Below are positions 17,599-50,414 of a DNA stretch of 64,000 nucleotides, piece after piece. The stretch comes from Lachnospirales bacterium (GTDB lineage Bacteria > Bacillota > Clostridia > Lachnospirales > CAMZNU01). The notes under the pieces were generated by a model. That model had not been told where the DNA came from and did no database searches. It saw only the letters and a list, made by a program, of their open reading frames with translations. The first letter of the stretch is position 1. Every line of letters starts with the position of its first letter. The stretch is from positions 65,858 through 129,857 of the forward strand of contig JBKEBX010000012.1 of NCBI GenBank assembly GCA_047973385.1, in the 5' to 3' direction. The translations under genes were made by a program, and so were the position numbers.

Positions 17599-18669
17599 AT
17601 GAAAGATTTAAAATACCGACAGATTGTTAACTATTATAAAGACAAAATTAAAAATAACGAAATTTCACAAGGGGATAAAATTGCAACAGAGGCTGAACTT
17701 CAAAGTAAGTTTGATGTAAGTAGACATACTGTAAGACGTGCTTTAGAAGTTCTAGAGAAAGAAAATTATATATACAAAGAAAAAAGTGTGGGGTGTTTTG
17801 TTAAAAAAAGTGAGGGTTTTCAAGAAAATATAGTAGTTGTTATTACAACTCATGTTTCGGATTATATTTTTCCTTATATTATACGAGGCATACAAGATGT
17901 ACTTAGCAAAAATGGCTTCGACATAATGTTGCTTAGTACCAATAATGATAAAGATAAAGAGGCTATGCAACTTGAAAAATTACTTAGTTACAATATAAAA
18001 GGGGCAATTATTGAGCCGACAAATAGTGCAAAGGATAATATTAATAAAAAATATTATGACGAACTTTTTAAAAGAAATATTCCATTTGTAACTATAAATT
18101 CCTATTATGAAAACTATAATAATCCCTATGTAATTATGAAAGACAAAAAAGGTGGATATATAGCTACAAAACATCTTTTAGAACTTGGACATAAAAATGT
18201 TGCAGGAATATTTAAAGAAGATGATATGCAAGGGGTTATGCGTAAAGATGGATACTTAGAAGCTTTAGAGGAGTTTAATATAAACATTGATAAATCTTTA
18301 ATAGGGAGCTACAAAAGTAGTGACGAGGATTTTTACCCATATGCATTTGTAAAAAATCTGCTTAAAAATAATAAAGAATTAACAGGTATAGTTTGCTATA
18401 ATGATAAGATAGCTATGCAAGTTATTTTAGCACTGAAGGAGCTTGAAAAAAAAGTTCCTGAAGATGTTTCAATCGTAGGCTATGATAATAAATGGAGCTA
18501 TATAAATGGCATGGAAGATGGTATAACATCTGTTGAACATCCGAAAGAAGATTTAGGTATAAAAGCAGGTGAAATTTTACTTGATATGATGGAAAACAAT
18601 AGTAGGAACAATAGTCCGTACAAATTTGAACCTAAATTAATAATAAAAAATTCTACTAAGAAAATATAA
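17599..18669 (+). CDS. AraR-like regulator: GntR-type HTH fused to a LacI/PBP1 sugar-binding domain
   Basis: N-terminus has LPSE-like ATEAELQSKFDVSRHTVRRAL. The C-terminal 270 aa show a LacI-type periplasmic-binding fold pattern. Confidence 0.75.
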   Translation: MKDLKYRQIVNYYKDKIKNNEISQGDKIATEAELQSKFDVSRHTVRRALEVLEKENYIYKEKSVGCFVKKSEGFQENIVVVITTHVSDYIFPYIIRGIQDVLSKNGFDIMLLSTNNDKDKEAMQLEKLLSYNIKGAIIEPTNSAKDNINKKYYDELFKRNIPFVTINSYYENYNNPYVIMKDKKGGYIATKHLLELGHKNVAGIFKEDDMQGVMRKDGYLEALEEFNINIDKSLIGSYKSSDEDFYPYAFVKNLLKNNKELTGIVCYNDKIAMQVILALKELEKKVPEDVSIVGYDNKWSYINGMEDGITSVEHPKEDLGIKAGEILLDMMENNSRNNSPYKFEPKLIIKNSTKKI

Positions 18670-18680
18670 AGGAGAAGTTT

Positions 18681-19853
18681 ATGGAAAATTTTATTTACAA
18701 TAACAGAACAGAAATAATTTTTGGTAAGGATACCCAAAAAGAAGTAGGAATGCATTTGCAAAAAAGAGGTAGCAAAAAAGTTTTACTTCATTATGGAGGA
18801 GGCTCTATTAAAAGAAATGGTGTTTATGACGATGTTATAAAATCCTTAAATGAACATAACATAGAATATGTTGAGCTTGGTGGCGTTGAGCCAAACCCAG
18901 ACATTGACCTTGCAAGAGAAGGTTCTAGGCTTGTAAAGGAACATGGCTTAGATTTTGTTTTAGCCGTTGGTGGTGGTTCTGTTATAGATAGTGCAAAGGC
19001 TATTTCTATGGGGTCGAAATATGATGGCGATGTATGGGATTTTTATGTAAACAAAGCCGTTCCAACAGAGTTTTTACCTGTTGCAACAATTTTAACTATT
19101 CCAGCTACAGGGAGCGAAAGCAGTACAAGTACAGTTTTGAGCAACAGAGAACTTTCTATGAAAAGAGGTTTAAATCATATTGAAATTCGACCTATATTTA
19201 GTATTTTAAATCCTGAAACTTGCTATACATTACCTGTAAATCAAATTGCTTACGGTGTTACAGACATTATTGCACATATATTTGAACGCTATTTCACAAA
19301 TGTTAATTACACAAAAATTACTGATGTAATGGCTGAGGGTTGGATGAAAGTTCTAATAAATGAAGTTGACATTTTACTTAAAGATAAAACAGATTATGAT
19401 GCATGGGCTGAAGTTATGTGGGGTGGAACGCTTGCACATAATAGACTTCTTGACTGTGGTAGAATAGGTTGTTGGGGTTCTCATAGAATTGAACATGAGA
19501 TAAGTGCAATTTATCCGGAAGTAGCACATGGTGCAGGTCTTGCCGTTGTTTTTCCGGCTTGGATGAAGTATGTATATAAATCAAATATTGATATTTTTGT
19601 TCAATTTGCAGTAAATGTTTTTGGTGTAGATGTAAATATGCGTAATCAAGAAGCTATTGCGCTTGAAGGTATTGCAAGGCTTGAGAAGTTTTATGAAGGA
19701 ATGGGACTTTCAACAAATCTAAAAGACTTAGGTGTAAAAGAATCAGACTTTGAGATAATGGCTGAAAAAGCTGTTATGTTCGGTGACATTGGTGAGTTTG
19801 TAAAATTATCAAAAAATGATATTGTAGAAATTTTTAAAATTGCATATAAGTAA
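18681..19853 (+). CDS. iron-containing alcohol dehydrogenase (butanol dehydrogenase/YqhD-like)
   Basis: GGGS(V/I)IDSAK motif, conserved His cluster, 390 aa. Confidence 0.85.
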   Translation: MENFIYNNRTEIIFGKDTQKEVGMHLQKRGSKKVLLHYGGGSIKRNGVYDDVIKSLNEHNIEYVELGGVEPNPDIDLAREGSRLVKEHGLDFVLAVGGGSVIDSAKAISMGSKYDGDVWDFYVNKAVPTEFLPVATILTIPATGSESSTSTVLSNRELSMKRGLNHIEIRPIFSILNPETCYTLPVNQIAYGVTDIIAHIFERYFTNVNYTKITDVMAEGWMKVLINEVDILLKDKTDYDAWAEVMWGGTLAHNRLLDCGRIGCWGSHRIEHEISAIYPEVAHGAGLAVVFPAWMKYVYKSNIDIFVQFAVNVFGVDVNMRNQEAIALEGIARLEKFYEGMGLSTNLKDLGVKESDFEIMAEKAVMFGDIGEFVKLSKNDIVEIFKIAYK

Positions 19854-19907: not shown

Positions 19908-19912
19908 AATAT

Positions 19913-19949
19913 AAAAAAAGTGTGAATTTTCAAAATTCACACTTTTTTT
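19913..19949. terminator. bidirectional intrinsic terminator shared by the convergent adh and pflA genes
   Basis: A7-gtgtgaatt-ttcaa-aattcacac-T7. Confidence 0.85.
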
Positions 19950-19956
19950 ATATTAA

Positions 19957-20709
19957 TTATTTGTTTTTTTCAGATAAAGCTTTTTTCATACCATATAAAA
20001 TAAAACTTTTTGCATTTTTTGCATTTTCCTTAGGCAGAGCAGGAACATTTTTTAGTTTATATTCAAGTCCCATTTCTTTATATTTACTTACACCCATTGT
20101 ATGATATGGTAAAACATCAAGGGATTTAAGGCTTTTAAGCTTTGCTAAAAATTCGCCTAATTTTATTAAATAATCTTCATTGTATGTAATACCAGGTACA
20201 GCAACATGCCGTATCCATAAAGGTATATTTTTTTCAGAAAGATACAATGCAAAATCTAAAATATTTGTATTAGAAGAGCCTGTAAGCTTTATATGTTCAT
20301 CATTATCAATATGCTTAATATCTAGTATAACAATATCAGTGTACTTTAACAATTCATCAAATTTATCAAGATTGTTTCGACTAAAGGTTGCACCTGATGT
20401 ATCTATACAAGTATGAATATTTTTCTTTTTAGCCTTTTTGAAAAAATCTATAAGGAAATCAATTTGCATAAGTGGTTCACCACCTGTTACAGTTATACCA
20501 CCTTTGCAAAATTCCTTGTTTTTTTCATATTCCTCTAAAAGCTCGTTAGATGTTTTAGTAAAAGCATAACTGTTTAAATCAAGAGCATCAGGGTTGTGAC
20601 AGTATAAACATCTAAGAGGACACCCTTGGAGAAACAGGACAAATCTAATACCAGGACCGTCAACTGTTCCTAAGGTTTGTATAGAATGGATTTTACCTTG
20701 TATATCCAT
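19957..20709 (-). CDS. pflA: pyruvate formate-lyase activating enzyme (radical SAM)
   Basis: CPLRCLYCHNP CxxxCxxC motif, 250 aa, directly downstream of the pfl genes. Confidence 0.95.
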   Translation of the reverse strand: MDIQGKIHSIQTLGTVDGPGIRFVLFLQGCPLRCLYCHNPDALDLNSYAFTKTSNELLEEYEKNKEFCKGGITVTGGEPLMQIDFLIDFFKKAKKKNIHTCIDTSGATFSRNNLDKFDELLKYTDIVILDIKHIDNDEHIKLTGSSNTNILDFALYLSEKNIPLWIRHVAVPGITYNEDYLIKLGEFLAKLKSLKSLDVLPYHTMGVSKYKEMGLEYKLKNVPALPKENAKNAKSFILYGMKKALSEKNK

Positions 20710-20711
20710 AA

Positions 20712-20957
20712 TTATAAATTATTGTGGAAAGTTCTTGAAATAACGTCGTCTTGTTGCTCCTTTGTGAGTTTAATGAAGTTCACAGCATAACCTGAAACTC
20801 TAATTGTTAAATTAGGGTAGTTTTCAGGGTGCTTTTGAGCGTCAAGAAGTGTATCTTTGTTTAGTACATTTACATTTAGGTGATGTCCACCTTTTTCAAC
20901 ATATCCGTCTAAAATTGAAACTAAATTATCTATTTGTTGTTCTGGTACTTTATTCAT
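20712..20957 (-). CDS. stand-alone glycyl-radical subunit (C-terminal PFL domain, GrcA/YfiD-like)
   Basis: [56 protein letters not shown] corresponds to the PFL C-terminus, including the RVSGYAV radical glycine. It has its own SD AAGGAGAAG 8 nt before the ATG. Confidence 0.9.
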
Positions 20958-20978
20958 AATAAACTTCTCCTTATAAAA

Positions 20979-23105
20979 TTAATCTTCTATTGTAACATTT
21001 GGTAATGCACAAGGTTTTGACAAATCACAGTTTGGATCGCCATTGAATAAATCAAGGTCTATATCTAAATCACCAAGTATGATTTTATCTTCTTTACCTA
21101 GAGCATCAGGTATTATAGTGAAAGTATTTGAAATACCATCTTGTGAGTATTTGAAAGGAAGTTTTGCAACTGATGAAAGTGATGCAGCAGCACCGTTTTC
21201 GTCACGACCATGCATAGGGTTTGCACCAGGAGCAAGAGGAACTCCAACTTTTCTACCATCTGGTGTAGAGCCTGTCTTTTTACCGTAAACTACATTAGAT
21301 GTAATTGTAAGAATTGACATCGTCGGGATACTTTGACGATATGTGTGGTGCTTTTCTATTTTTTCCATAAAGTTTTTAACAAGCATAGATGCTATATCAT
21401 CAACTCTGTCATCGTTATTACCGTATTTTGGGTAATCTCCTTCGATTTCGTAATCTGTTATGATACCATCGTCATCACGAACAACTTTAACTTTTGCGTA
21501 TTTTATAGCAGAAAGTGAGTCAGCAACAACGGAAAGTCCAGCTATACCTGTTGCAAAATATCGCTTAACTTCTCTATCATGTAAAGCCATTTGAACTTTT
21601 TCATATGCATATTTATCATGCATGTAATGGATAACGTTTAAAGTATTTACATATAAGTTAGCTAACCATTCAGTCATGTCCTCATATTTTGTAAAAACAT
21701 CATCAAAGTCAAGGTATTCACCTTCAACGGCTCTTGAACGAGGACCAACTTGGATTTTCATTTTTTCGTCCATACCACCATTAATAGCGTATAGTAAGCA
21801 TTTCGCAATATTTGCTCTTGCTCCAAAAAATTGTAATTCTTTACCTAAAACCATACTAGATACACAACAAGCAATTGCGTAGTCATCACCATGGTAGCCT
21901 CTCATAAGATCATCATTCTCATACTGAATTGATGAAGATATAATTGACATTTTTGCACAGAATTTTTTAAATTCTTCAGGTAATGATGTAGACCATAAAA
22001 CAGTCAAGTTTGGTTCAGGAGCAGGGGATAATGTGTTAAGTGTGTTTAAGTATCTAAAAGAAGTTTTTGTAACAAGGTGCTTACCTGTTAAGCTAATACC
22101 ACCAATACACTCAGTAACCCATGTTGGATCTCCTGAAAAGAGTTCATCATATTCACTTGTACGAGCAAAACGTACAATACGAAGTTTCATAATGAAATGG
22201 TCAATATATTCTTGTGCTTGTTCTTCTGTCAAAGTACCTTCTTCAATATCTCTTTGAATATAAATATCGATAAAAGTTGAAGTTCTACCTAAACTCATGG
22301 CAGCACCGTTTTGTTCTTTAACTGCTGCAAGATATGCAAGGTATGTCCATTGTATAGCTTCTTTTGCATTTACAGCAGGTTTAGAAATATCAAAACCATA
22401 TATTTTACCAAGTTCAATAAGTTCATATAAAGAACGGATTTGTTCGGATAGTTCTTCTCTTAAACGTATATTTTCTCCAGTCATTCTAATTGGAGCTGCA
22501 GAAAGTTCTTCCTTTTTCTCATCAATAAGTATATCAACACCATAAAGGGCAACTCTACGATAATCGCCGATAATTCTACCACGACCGTAAGCATCAGGTA
22601 ACCCTGATATTATACCTGCTTTTCTAGCTAACTTCATTTCGTCAGTGTAGGCATCGAAAACACCAGCATTATGAGTTTTTCTATATTTTGTAAAAATTTC
22701 CTTAGTTTCTTCATCTATGTTATATCCATGTTGGGAAAGAGCCGTTTCAGCAACTCTTATTCCACCAAAGGGTTGGAACGCTCTTTTAAGTGGTGCATCA
22801 GTTTGGAGTCCTACTATTGTTTCTAAATCTTTATCAATATATCCAGCTTTATGAGAAGTAATTGTAGCAACTGTTTTGGTATCCATATCTAAAACACCAC
22901 CAGCATCACGTTCAGCTTGTGTAATTTCTGAAAGTTTTTCCCAAAGCTTAGTTGTTTTTTCTGAAGCATCAGCGAGGAAAGAGTCATCTCCATCGTATGG
23001 AGTGTAGTTAAGAGTGATAAAGTCACGCACATTTGGTGCATTTGTTGACCAAAGTCCAGGGATAAAACCTCTCCATTCATTTGAGAATAGTGTTTTGTTC
23101 GACAT
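20979..23105 (-). CDS. pflB: pyruvate formate-lyase large (catalytic) fragment lacking the glycyl-radical domain
   Basis: 708 aa with the active-site ACCVS Cys-Cys. Homology ends at ...PDALGKED and is followed by a 35-aa acidic non-PFL tail and TAA. Confidence 0.9.
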
Positions 23106-23526
23106 AATTTGAACTCTCCTTTAAGTTTAATACAAATGTAGTGGGTGCTACATTTAAGTTGTAGTGATTGCTACTTTACAAATATAGTTTAACATTTTTT
23201 TAGTAACTTGTCAATAATCTTTATTGTTTTGGTGGGAATTGACGTGTAGAAAAAAAGTGAATATTTTTGATGAATATATATTAATATATACATTTTACAT
23301 ATACATAAGTGTACAACTATAATAATTAGTTAGAAAATTAAAAATAATAAACAAAAAATATGGCATAATAAAAAAATAACAATTAATTTAATAGTAAAAT
23401 TACTTATTGATAAAAATTCTTAATAATTAAATTGTGTACTATACAGATGTGTAATATATGTAATTGAAATTATGTGTATTTATTGATATAATATACATAA
23501 GATTAAAATGATTTTTGGAGGATATT

Positions 23527-49480: not shown

Positions 49481-49501
49481 ATATTTGTTGTTAAAAAATA
49501 T

Positions 49502-49574
49502 GGGAGCATAGCTCAGCTGGGAGAGCACCTGCCTTACAAGCAGGGGGTCAGTGGTTCGAGCCCACTTGTTCCCA
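49502..49574 (+). tRNA. tRNA-Val (anticodon TAC)
   Basis: Manual cloverleaf: 7/4/5/5-bp stems, loop CTTACAA, GGTTCGAGC T-arm. No encoded CCA. Confidence 0.9.
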
Positions 49575-49578
49575 TCAT

Positions 49579-49652
49579 GGCGGTATAGCTCAGTTGGCTA
49601 GAGCATACGGTTCATACCCGTAGTGTCGGCGGTTCAAATCCGTCTACCGCTA
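49579..49652 (+). tRNA. tRNA-Met, elongator type (anticodon CAT)
   Basis: Manual cloverleaf. The anticodon arm TACGGTTCATACCCGTA is like the B. subtilis elongator tRNA-Met, not tRNA-Ile2 or tRNA-fMet. Confidence 0.8.
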
Positions 49653-49657
49653 TTTTA

Positions 49658-50179: not shown

Positions 50180-50224
50180 TAAAATATATATAAAACGATG
50201 ATAAAAGAAAGTAACATATATTTC

Positions 50225-50414
50225 TTCTTTAGAGAAAATCTGGTTGGTGAAAAGATTTGAGGTGTATATGTGAAGTGCCTTTTGGAGTTCTTTGCCGAAA
50301 ATTTAGTAGTCAAAGACGTTTGCAACGTTATAGCAGATGAGATTAGCTTGATGAGAGCTATAGAGTGGAACCGTAGCGAAGCTACCTCTTAAATATAAGA
50401 GGTAGCTTTATTTA
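50225..50414 (+). promoter_or_regulatory. T-box leader (tRNA-Cys-responsive) upstream of cysS
   Basis: AGAGA box at 50231. Distal hairpin aaatc-tggttggtgaaaa-gattt. T-box sequence AGAGTGGAACCGTAG at 50362-50376. Terminator aagctacctctt-aaatat-aagaggtagctt plus a T-rich tail. Confidence 0.75.

Follow-up and report, generated by a model that had tools for sequence, protein, structure and literature searches.

A pyruvate formate-lyase divided between two genes in a Lachnospirales bacterium and other gut Clostridia

Pyruvate formate-lyase (PFL) is the founding glycyl radical enzyme, and a main pathway by which gut anaerobes use pyruvate and produce formate. Oxygen destroys the enzyme through cleavage of the chain at the radical glycine. 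A locus in the genome of a Lachnospirales bacterium raises the question of whether the catalytic body and the radical glycine of a PFL may be encoded by different genes. The locus resides in a stretch of 64,000 nucleotides (assembly GCA_047973385.1, contig JBKEBX010000012.1, positions 65,858 to 129,857 of the forward strand), hereafter called the window, to which all coordinates refer unless a locus handle is given. A large open reading frame (ORF) resembling PFL ends before the glycyl-radical domain, which is encoded by a small ORF located immediately downstream and followed by pflA, the gene for the PFL-activating enzyme. The elements of the locus are the following.

20979..23105, minus strand: putative large subunit, PFL catalytic body without the glycyl-radical loop, 708 amino acids (aa) plus stop (Pfam, TIGR01255)
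21858..21872, minus strand: Cys-Cys loop ACCVS, residues 412-416, corresponding to C418/C419 of E. coli PFL (sequence and alignment to PDB PFL chains)
20958..20978, minus strand: 21-nt spacer with the Shine-Dalgarno (SD) sequence AAGGAG, 9 nt before the ATG (sequence)
20712..20957, minus strand: putative small subunit GrcA3, detached glycyl-radical domain, 81 aa plus stop, corresponding to E. coli PFL 679-759 (NF038360, Pfam)
20790..20792, minus strand: GGT codon of Gly56, the predicted radical glycine in RVSGYAV (invariant column in alignment A3, 30 GrcA3 sequences)
19957..20709, minus strand: pflA, PFL-activating radical S-adenosylmethionine enzyme, 250 aa (TIGR02493; ATG at 20709)

The product of the large ORF is ~58% identical to E. 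coli PFL, matches the Pfam PFL-like family (PF02901) with an E-value of 2e-216, and scores 1082.3 bits (cut-off 994.2) against TIGR01255, of which it covers profile positions 2-666 of 744. The adjacent cysteines of PFL are found in ACCVS, at residues 412-416. Homology to PFL ends at residue 673, and is followed by a tail of 35 aa. TIGR01255 describes enzymes carrying the radical-glycine motif on the same chain; RVSGY is missing from the large ORF, and sits on the separate ORF of 81 aa.

The small ORF features RVSGYAV at residues 53-59, and its radical Gly56 lies 25 residues from the C-terminus. The protein is free-standing, about 80 aa long and served by its own SD sequence and ATG, as typical of the GrcA3 family, whose homologues measure 77-86 aa, and it scores 163.9 bits against NF038360 (GrcA3; cut-off 158), with residues 5-81 matching profile positions 2-78 of 78. 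Scores for the GrcA/YfiD model TIGR04365 (92.9 vs 170 bits) and for GrcA2 NF008341 (111 vs 145 bits) are below the respective cut-offs. Relatives of the small ORF exceed 8000, and the top 120 all measure 77-103 aa; in RefSeq, homologues named GrcA3 are found in Dorea, [Clostridium] hylemonae, Extibacter and Clostridium boliviensis. In alignment A3 the mean column identity is 85%, and 47 columns are invariant. Such extreme conservation is what one would expect of a part that has to fit both the core and the activase.

The two products complement each other. The Pfam Gly_radical domain is cut between the ORFs, profile positions 2-51 being in the large and 51-106 in the small protein. The latter aligns with residues 679-757 of E. 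coli PFL, and the break corresponds to D678|E679, with no residues missing or duplicated; the alignment against single-chain PFLs proposed in the preliminary description, which had been made from the sequence alone, thus revealed a clean junction. The TAA of the large ORF and the ATG of the small one are separated by TTTTATAAGGAGAAGTTTATT (21 nt). Two nt separate the grcA3 stop from the ATG of pflA, which has no SD sequence of its own, and translational coupling of grcA3 and pflA is therefore likely. The pflA product scores 281.2 bits against TIGR02493 (cut-off 231.75), and carries domains PF04055 and PF13353. The anatomy given earlier (a 708-aa ORF with ACCVS, a separate 81-aa ORF with RVSGYAV, the TAA, the 21-nt spacer with its SD sequence, the ATG, and pflA 2 nt past the small stop) could be read in the sequence in every detail.

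The split was looked for in an independent assembly and in other microorganisms. The Logan assembly of SRR30067236 contains the same three genes in the same order, encoding proteins 100% identical to those of the window. Relatives were scanned using one genome per species; 597 relatives of the small ORF were retrieved, and the best 80 loci were examined. The small ORF is a separate gene, 77-84 aa long, in 77 of these 80, and the order large ORF, small ORF and, usually, pflA is found in ~60. The large subunit was compared with its 120 nearest clusters: all 120 are devoid of RVSGY, and measure 687-712 aa. Split-type large subunits are 66-86% identical across families, and retain ACCVS; they are annotated simply as formate C-acetyltransferase. 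Two longer ENA-derived proteins, P0129 (821 aa) and P0130 (805 aa), contain blocks of ~100 residues repeated verbatim, and are evidently misassembled split-type large subunits, not fused enzymes.

The split was seen in dozens of unrelated assemblies. The hosts are Lachnospiraceae, Oscillospiraceae, Ruminococcus (including the complete genome of R. callidus ATCC 27760), Acutalibacteraceae and Gastranaerophilales, and include also a Treponemataceae metagenome-assembled genome (MAG). Spacers between the two ORFs vary from 10 to ~400 nt, and are mostly not multiples of three; those of the closest relatives measure 43 and 144 nt. As spacer lengths vary between genomes, a single ORF cannot be regained through any one indel. 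The split is thus genuine, and frequent among gut Clostridia. Gene fission rather than a frameshift had been suspected from the stop-SD-ATG junction, and a survey of related genomes had been recommended; conservation of the split across families, the 120 clusters without RVSGY and the differing spacers bear the suspicion out. A search of representatives clustered at 50% identity yielded mostly fragments, from which no worldwide fraction of split versus single-chain enzymes is derivable.

Are the two products compatible with a complete enzyme? The two proteins were joined via the seven in-frame codons of the spacer, as an artificial fusion, and modelled with AlphaFold. A first run, based on a shallow alignment of 58 sequences ~70% identical, gave a mean predicted local distance difference test score (pLDDT) of 54.7, and was unusable. 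A second run, based on a more diverse alignment of sequences from the 50%-clustered representative search, gave a pLDDT of 91.3 and a predicted template modelling score of 0.91. Values below 50 were confined to residues 674-716 of the joined model, corresponding to the tail and the linker, and the tail was not placed. According to Foldseek, the model superposes on E. coli PFL (2PFL) with a template modelling score of 0.96, normalised to the 759-residue target, and a root-mean-square deviation of 1.1 Å; in the model, the product of the small ORF thus occupies the position of the single-chain radical domain. Together, the two ORFs are predicted to form a complete PFL fold with a docked glycyl-radical domain.

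We consider it probable that the locus encodes an obligate two-subunit PFL, in which the radical-bearing subunit can be cheaply replaced after oxygen damage. The three-gene operon pflB-core, grcA3 and pflA would make a two-subunit enzyme: the 708-aa protein would provide the ten-stranded barrel and the Cys-Cys site, and GrcA3 the C-terminal glycyl-radical domain, made by a helix, strand beta10, the RVSGY finger and the last helix. GrcA3 would dock non-covalently at the canonical position, PflA would abstract the hydrogen of Gly56, and catalysis would then proceed as in E. coli PFL. Since PFL is cut by oxygen at the radical glycine, and the domain carrying the glycine is here detached, only the 81-residue protein would need to be remade, the radical carrier being a consumable subunit rather than a back-up part. 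Physical association, activation by PflA, the economy of repair and the role of the tail are steps that we infer.

Known systems provide a partial precedent. GrcA/YfiD of E. coli, like Y06I of phage T4, is a free polypeptide featuring RVSGYAV; it cooperates in trans with a PFL body, and its activation depends on PflA. The part of YfiD matched by GrcA3 is residues 68-126. In contrast to the body encoded in the window, which at no time carries a glycine, E. coli PFL is complete, and YfiD acts only after cleavage by oxygen. The two small proteins differ also at the N-terminus: YfiD has 60 disordered residues, needed for binding, while GrcA3 has only ~5 extra residues and retains the PFL helix 680-693. 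Proof of principle comes from an engineered E. coli pair, PFL(1-695) and YfiD(61-127), in which PFL is cut just before beta10 and complemented in trans; once activated, the pair turns over like the wild type (kcat 204 per s; Andorfer et al. 2021, PMC8683613), and a PFL body can therefore work with a detached radical domain. Binding and activation of this pair are poor without the 696-733 stump of the cleaved enzyme and the N-terminus of YfiD; the stump, a duplicate of strand beta10 plus half of the glycine loop, is needed for YfiD binding and activation, the dissociation constant being 14 µM in its presence and undetectable in its absence (PMC8683613). The natural split cuts the protein 17 residues earlier (678|679) than the engineered one, and its conserved tail may solve the same problem. 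The notion of a replaceable cartridge, advanced in the preliminary description, fits this biochemistry. Benzylsuccinate synthase (alpha-beta-gamma) and 4-hydroxyphenylacetate decarboxylase also combine a large catalytic chain with small chains. In these enzymes, however, it is the large chain that retains the glycine, and the small subunits are Fe-S or accessory proteins of unrelated type, whereas here the small chain is the radical domain itself.

Several points weigh against an obligate two-subunit enzyme. The joined model is an artificial fusion of a fold known to the network, and speaks for compatibility of the parts, not for their association; it also provides no structure for the tail. 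No experiments on expression, association or radical formation of any GrcA3 operon were found in the literature searched. Only 64 kb of the genome are visible, and a second, full-length pflB may lie elsewhere; no full-length PFL was found in the 64-kb window. The name chosen for the small protein by NCBI curators is that of a repair factor rather than of a subunit. Finally, in ~16 of the 80 loci grcA3 is unlinked to any PFL, which fits a spare-part role as well.

The tail of the large subunit may bear on how the small protein is loaded. Its parts are the following.

20982..21086, minus strand: non-PFL tail, 35 aa, residues 674-708 (sequence; pLDDT below 50 in the AlphaFold model)
21057..21092, minus strand: tail motif T1, 12 residues (672-683), directly after ALGK (conserved in the 120 nearest large subunits)
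20994..21029, minus strand: tail Cys module C-x5-C-x-x-P-N-V, 12 residues (alignment A4 and hhalign)

The tail had been described as acidic and unrelated to PFL. It indeed contains 8 acidic and 2 basic residues; rather than merely acidic, however, it is a composite of T1 and of the Cys module. T1 fits the consensus D-[DSA]-x-[VLI]-F-x-G-D-[LI]-D-[IL]-[ED] after ALGK in all of the 120 relatives. The Gly is conserved in 116 of these, and the two Asp of G-D-[LI]-D in 110 and 117, respectively; the suggestion that the tail matters gains from this conservation. T1 was found in all split loci, and is absent in two canonical fused relatives (L049 and L066), which read ALGKDEENAKDNLVALLDGY. Hydrophobic and acidic residues alternate in T1, which looks like a strand with one apolar face and, judging from the geometry, would lie next to the N-terminal helix of GrcA3.

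The Cys module, at the C-terminal end of the tail, reads C-x5-C-A-L-P-N-V in the window. In alignment A4, made by 20 long tails from other genomes, the module conforms to DC-x2-4-AC-x-x-P-[NT]-[LI]; the Pro is invariant, and both Cys are conserved in at least 90% of the sequences. About half of the operons have a short tail (15-25 residues), and the ~300-nt "spacer" of these operons holds a third ORF. This middle ORF, 66-80 aa long, was found between the truncated pflB and grcA3 in ~28 operon loci, and is an unannotated gene. Examples are:

L032:3733-3936, middle ORF
L033:3725-3934, middle ORF
L001:3754-3987, middle ORF

When the middle ORFs are aligned, the first 31 columns show homology to the helix and strand of GrcA3 (hhalign probability 95%, E-value 2.5e-8), and the last 20 columns to the Cys module of the long tails, that of the window included (94.9%, 4.6e-8). 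Its C-terminal end features an invariant A-C and a Cys-x-x-Pro-Thr/Asn motif. No family for the middle ORF was found in Pfam or NCBIfam, and a profile search retrieved 2213 clusters, every one named "hypothetical protein". A candidate origin of the tail as a diverged copy of the GrcA3 N-terminus was rejected (hhalign E-value 0.85), as only the separate middle ORF has that homology. The sole match of the Cys module to GrcA3, a non-significant one, pairs xPNL with YPNL just before the glycine finger.

These similarities suggest that the middle ORF encodes a glycine-less remnant of the radical domain, and that the window tail is a shortened middle protein fused to the body. The tail would be a functional appendage tied to the split, and its acidic, strand-like T1 and Cys-x-x-Pro-Asn module would help to recruit, hold or gate GrcA3, paralleling residues 696-733 of E. 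coli PFL. The docking peptide proposed in the preliminary description is only a candidate role, the tail having a pLDDT below 50. By analogy, the remnant may play in split systems a recognition role like that of the E. coli stump, or serve as a placeholder plug.

The plug may be put in more precise terms: the tail, or the ~67-aa protein, would be a glycine-less radical-domain remnant which occupies the active-site funnel until displaced by activated GrcA3, thus acting as a gate and not as a docking aid. The homology of the middle ORF to the helix and strand of GrcA3, the Cys module that its end shares with the window tail, and the xPNL/YPNL match are in line with such a role, as is the observation that the cleaved E. 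coli stump 696-733 must shift aside for YfiD (PMC8683613). The window tail, however, is devoid of the helix-strand part, the Cys module has no significant resemblance to the glycine loop (E-value 0.85), and AlphaFold leaves the tail unplaced; the plug is a possibility that we regard as doubtful. Equally tentative is the broader proposal that a split PFL is made by three modules, the body, the consumable GrcA3 cartridge, and a glycine-less remnant controlling loading of the cartridge. The remnant would be the tail in the window, and a separate ~67-aa protein in many Lachnospiraceae and Ruminococcus genomes; its conserved Cys might make loading redox- or oxygen-sensitive. If true, an emergency-repair route of E. 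coli would have turned into the normal assembly route of the enzyme.

An obligate two-subunit enzyme has also to be weighed against the possibility that GrcA3 is a spare part, which in the manner of E. coli GrcA/YfiD repairs a different, full-length PFL from another locus, the truncated ORF being a crippled or inactive, decaying gene. The family name given by NCBI to NF038360, "autonomous glycyl radical cofactor GrcA3", to which the 81-aa ORF belongs, implies repair and not an obligate subunit, and most of the genome lies outside the view. Unlinked grcA3 genes point in the same direction. They reside in L006, L011, L014, L020, L027, L034, L038, L041, L047, L054, L067, L069, L071, L072, L075 and L076, are nearly identical to operon copies, and have no PFL or PflA within 4 kb. 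Judging translations by eye, those in L041 and L071 lie beside a spoIIIA-like operon, and that in L011 adjoins an apparent Crp/Fnr-type regulator. Because PFL is not linked to grcA3 in ~16 of the 80 loci, the small gene may be able to function remotely, or be present as an additional copy. A decaying pflB, however, would not look like the genes found in the split loci: the large subunits are highly similar across families and keep ACCVS, a new conserved motif has been gained after ALGK, pflA is kept immediately downstream, and a glycine of their own is missing from all 120 nearest relatives. We hold the spare-part explanation to be improbable, and favour the two-subunit enzyme.

Three single-chain enzymes are relevant to the origin of the two-subunit arrangement. 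In a tree of the bodies, built by neighbour joining from 668 columns and without support values, all split forms belong to one clade, and distant single-chain PFLs are found outside. Three fused PFLs nest within the split clade:

L045:1865-4225, fused single-chain PFL, inside the split clade
L049:2018-4246, fused single-chain PFL, inside the split clade
L066:1994-4219, fused single-chain PFL, inside the split clade

L049 (Jutongia hominis) and L066 feature a canonical junction between body and radical domain. In L045 (Treponemataceae MAG, 786 aa) a 38-residue Cys-containing insert is kept between the two. All three look like re-fusions. The split clade with its nested fusions, and the universal T1 motif, suggest one old fission, partial spread by transfer, which reached Melainabacteria and a spirochaete, and occasional re-fusion.

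In the window the two ORFs share the reading frame (20957-20981): the TAA is followed by 7 codons and the ATG, and read-through would yield a chain of 797 aa. It could be imagined that programmed read-through of the TAA makes this chain the active enzyme, the separate small ORF being secondary, and the natural fusion in L045, with its retained Cys-containing insert, may be viewed as a parallel. TAA is, however, the least leaky stop codon, the small ORF is served by a strong SD sequence and an ATG, and the spacers of the closest relatives (43 and 144 nt) and of most other loci set the ORFs out of frame. Programmed read-through was thus rejected, and is very unlikely; the shared frame in the window is probably a coincidence, because spacers elsewhere vary in length and are mostly not multiples of three. 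The shared frame might also point to a single-chain pflB interrupted by an error of sequencing or assembly, or by a nonsense mutation or insertion of very recent date. This explanation is refuted by the comparative data and carries next to no weight, given the identical independent assembly, the split conserved across hundreds of genomes with spacers of 10-400 nt, the SD sequence of the small ORF, and a 35-aa tail and a 5-residue leader which have no counterpart in single-chain PFL.

Has a two-piece PFL been described before? The preliminary description knew of none, and full-text searches of the literature retrieved no paper on a natural two-piece PFL. Similarly, they retrieved no publication on GrcA3, or linking GrcA3 to a PFL devoid of the radical domain or to the conserved tail. 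A glycyl radical enzyme review of June 2026 deals solely with the E. coli spare part YfiD/GrcA; in a 2026 review (PMC13450708), spare-part proteins appear only as a rescue after damage, and natural split enzymes are unmentioned. The arrangement is nonetheless not new to databases, as the GrcA3 family NF038360 is curated, and PDB contains the entries 38la and 38lb. These (687 and 739 residues) are, among PDB sequences, those that match the large ORF best (1067 and 1045 bits, respectively), are named "Formate acetyltransferase", have no radical domain, and comprise four chains per entry; 38lb continues with ALGKSGNVMFGECDM, which is T1-like. No GrcA3-like chain from either entry was found among the PDB sequence matches of the small ORF. 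Both are absent from a structure library ending 2026-04-08, and were therefore probably released later; someone may already be at work on split PFLs. As far as searched, the architecture is known to databases, apparently not to the literature: the split PFL is already labelled in annotation and probably under structural study, and no published description was found.

Should the dominant PFL of Ruminococcus, Lachnospiraceae and Oscillospiraceae be made of two pieces, current annotation, with "formate C-acetyltransferase" for the body and "repair cofactor" for the small protein, would misdescribe a very abundant enzyme. A naturally detached radical domain provides a handle on how the activase reaches a glycine buried in the barrel, and opens the question of whether free GrcA3 is a substrate of PflA, or the complex alone. 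Oxygen sensitivity limits the industrial use of glycyl radical enzymes; a consumable radical carrier of 81 residues suggests a cheap form of oxygen tolerance, which might be transplanted to other members of the group.

Additional features flank the operon.

23186..23214, minus strand: promoter-like TTGACA-17-TAAACT (with TG) upstream of the large ORF (consensus scan)
19908..19954, no strand assigned: long hairpin, AT-rich and with runs of T and A, between pflA and the iron-type alcohol dehydrogenase gene that converges on it (terminator scan)

The promoter-like site is a consensus match only, as the count of such sites in the region equals that expected from shuffled sequences. The terminator scan found no terminator-like site between the genes of the operon, and the hairpin is likely a bidirectional terminator closing it. 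An iron-type alcohol dehydrogenase gene (18681-19853, plus strand) converges on pflA and shares the hairpin; directly upstream of it lies a gene for a GntR-type regulator with a periplasmic-binding-protein domain (17599-18669, plus strand). Both assignments are from Pfam on L081, and the two genes form with the PFL genes a small fermentation neighbourhood.

Two exact copies of GTAGCA-NN-CACTAC, 23 bp apart, are found on the minus strand at 23138-23151 and 23161-23174, between the promoter-like site and the start of pflB, and represent a possible operator pair. They are the sole matches in 64 kb, 0.1 being expected, and the downstream copy extends into the perfect palindrome TGTAG-N6-CTACA. Contig L081, otherwise identical, differs in one of the copies; the motif is not conserved, being absent in relatives. 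Elsewhere in the window, and unrelated to the operon, an ordinary tandem of tRNA-Val(TAC) and tRNA-Met(CAT) is followed by a T-box leader (116 bits), at 49501-49653 and 50189-50392, respectively.

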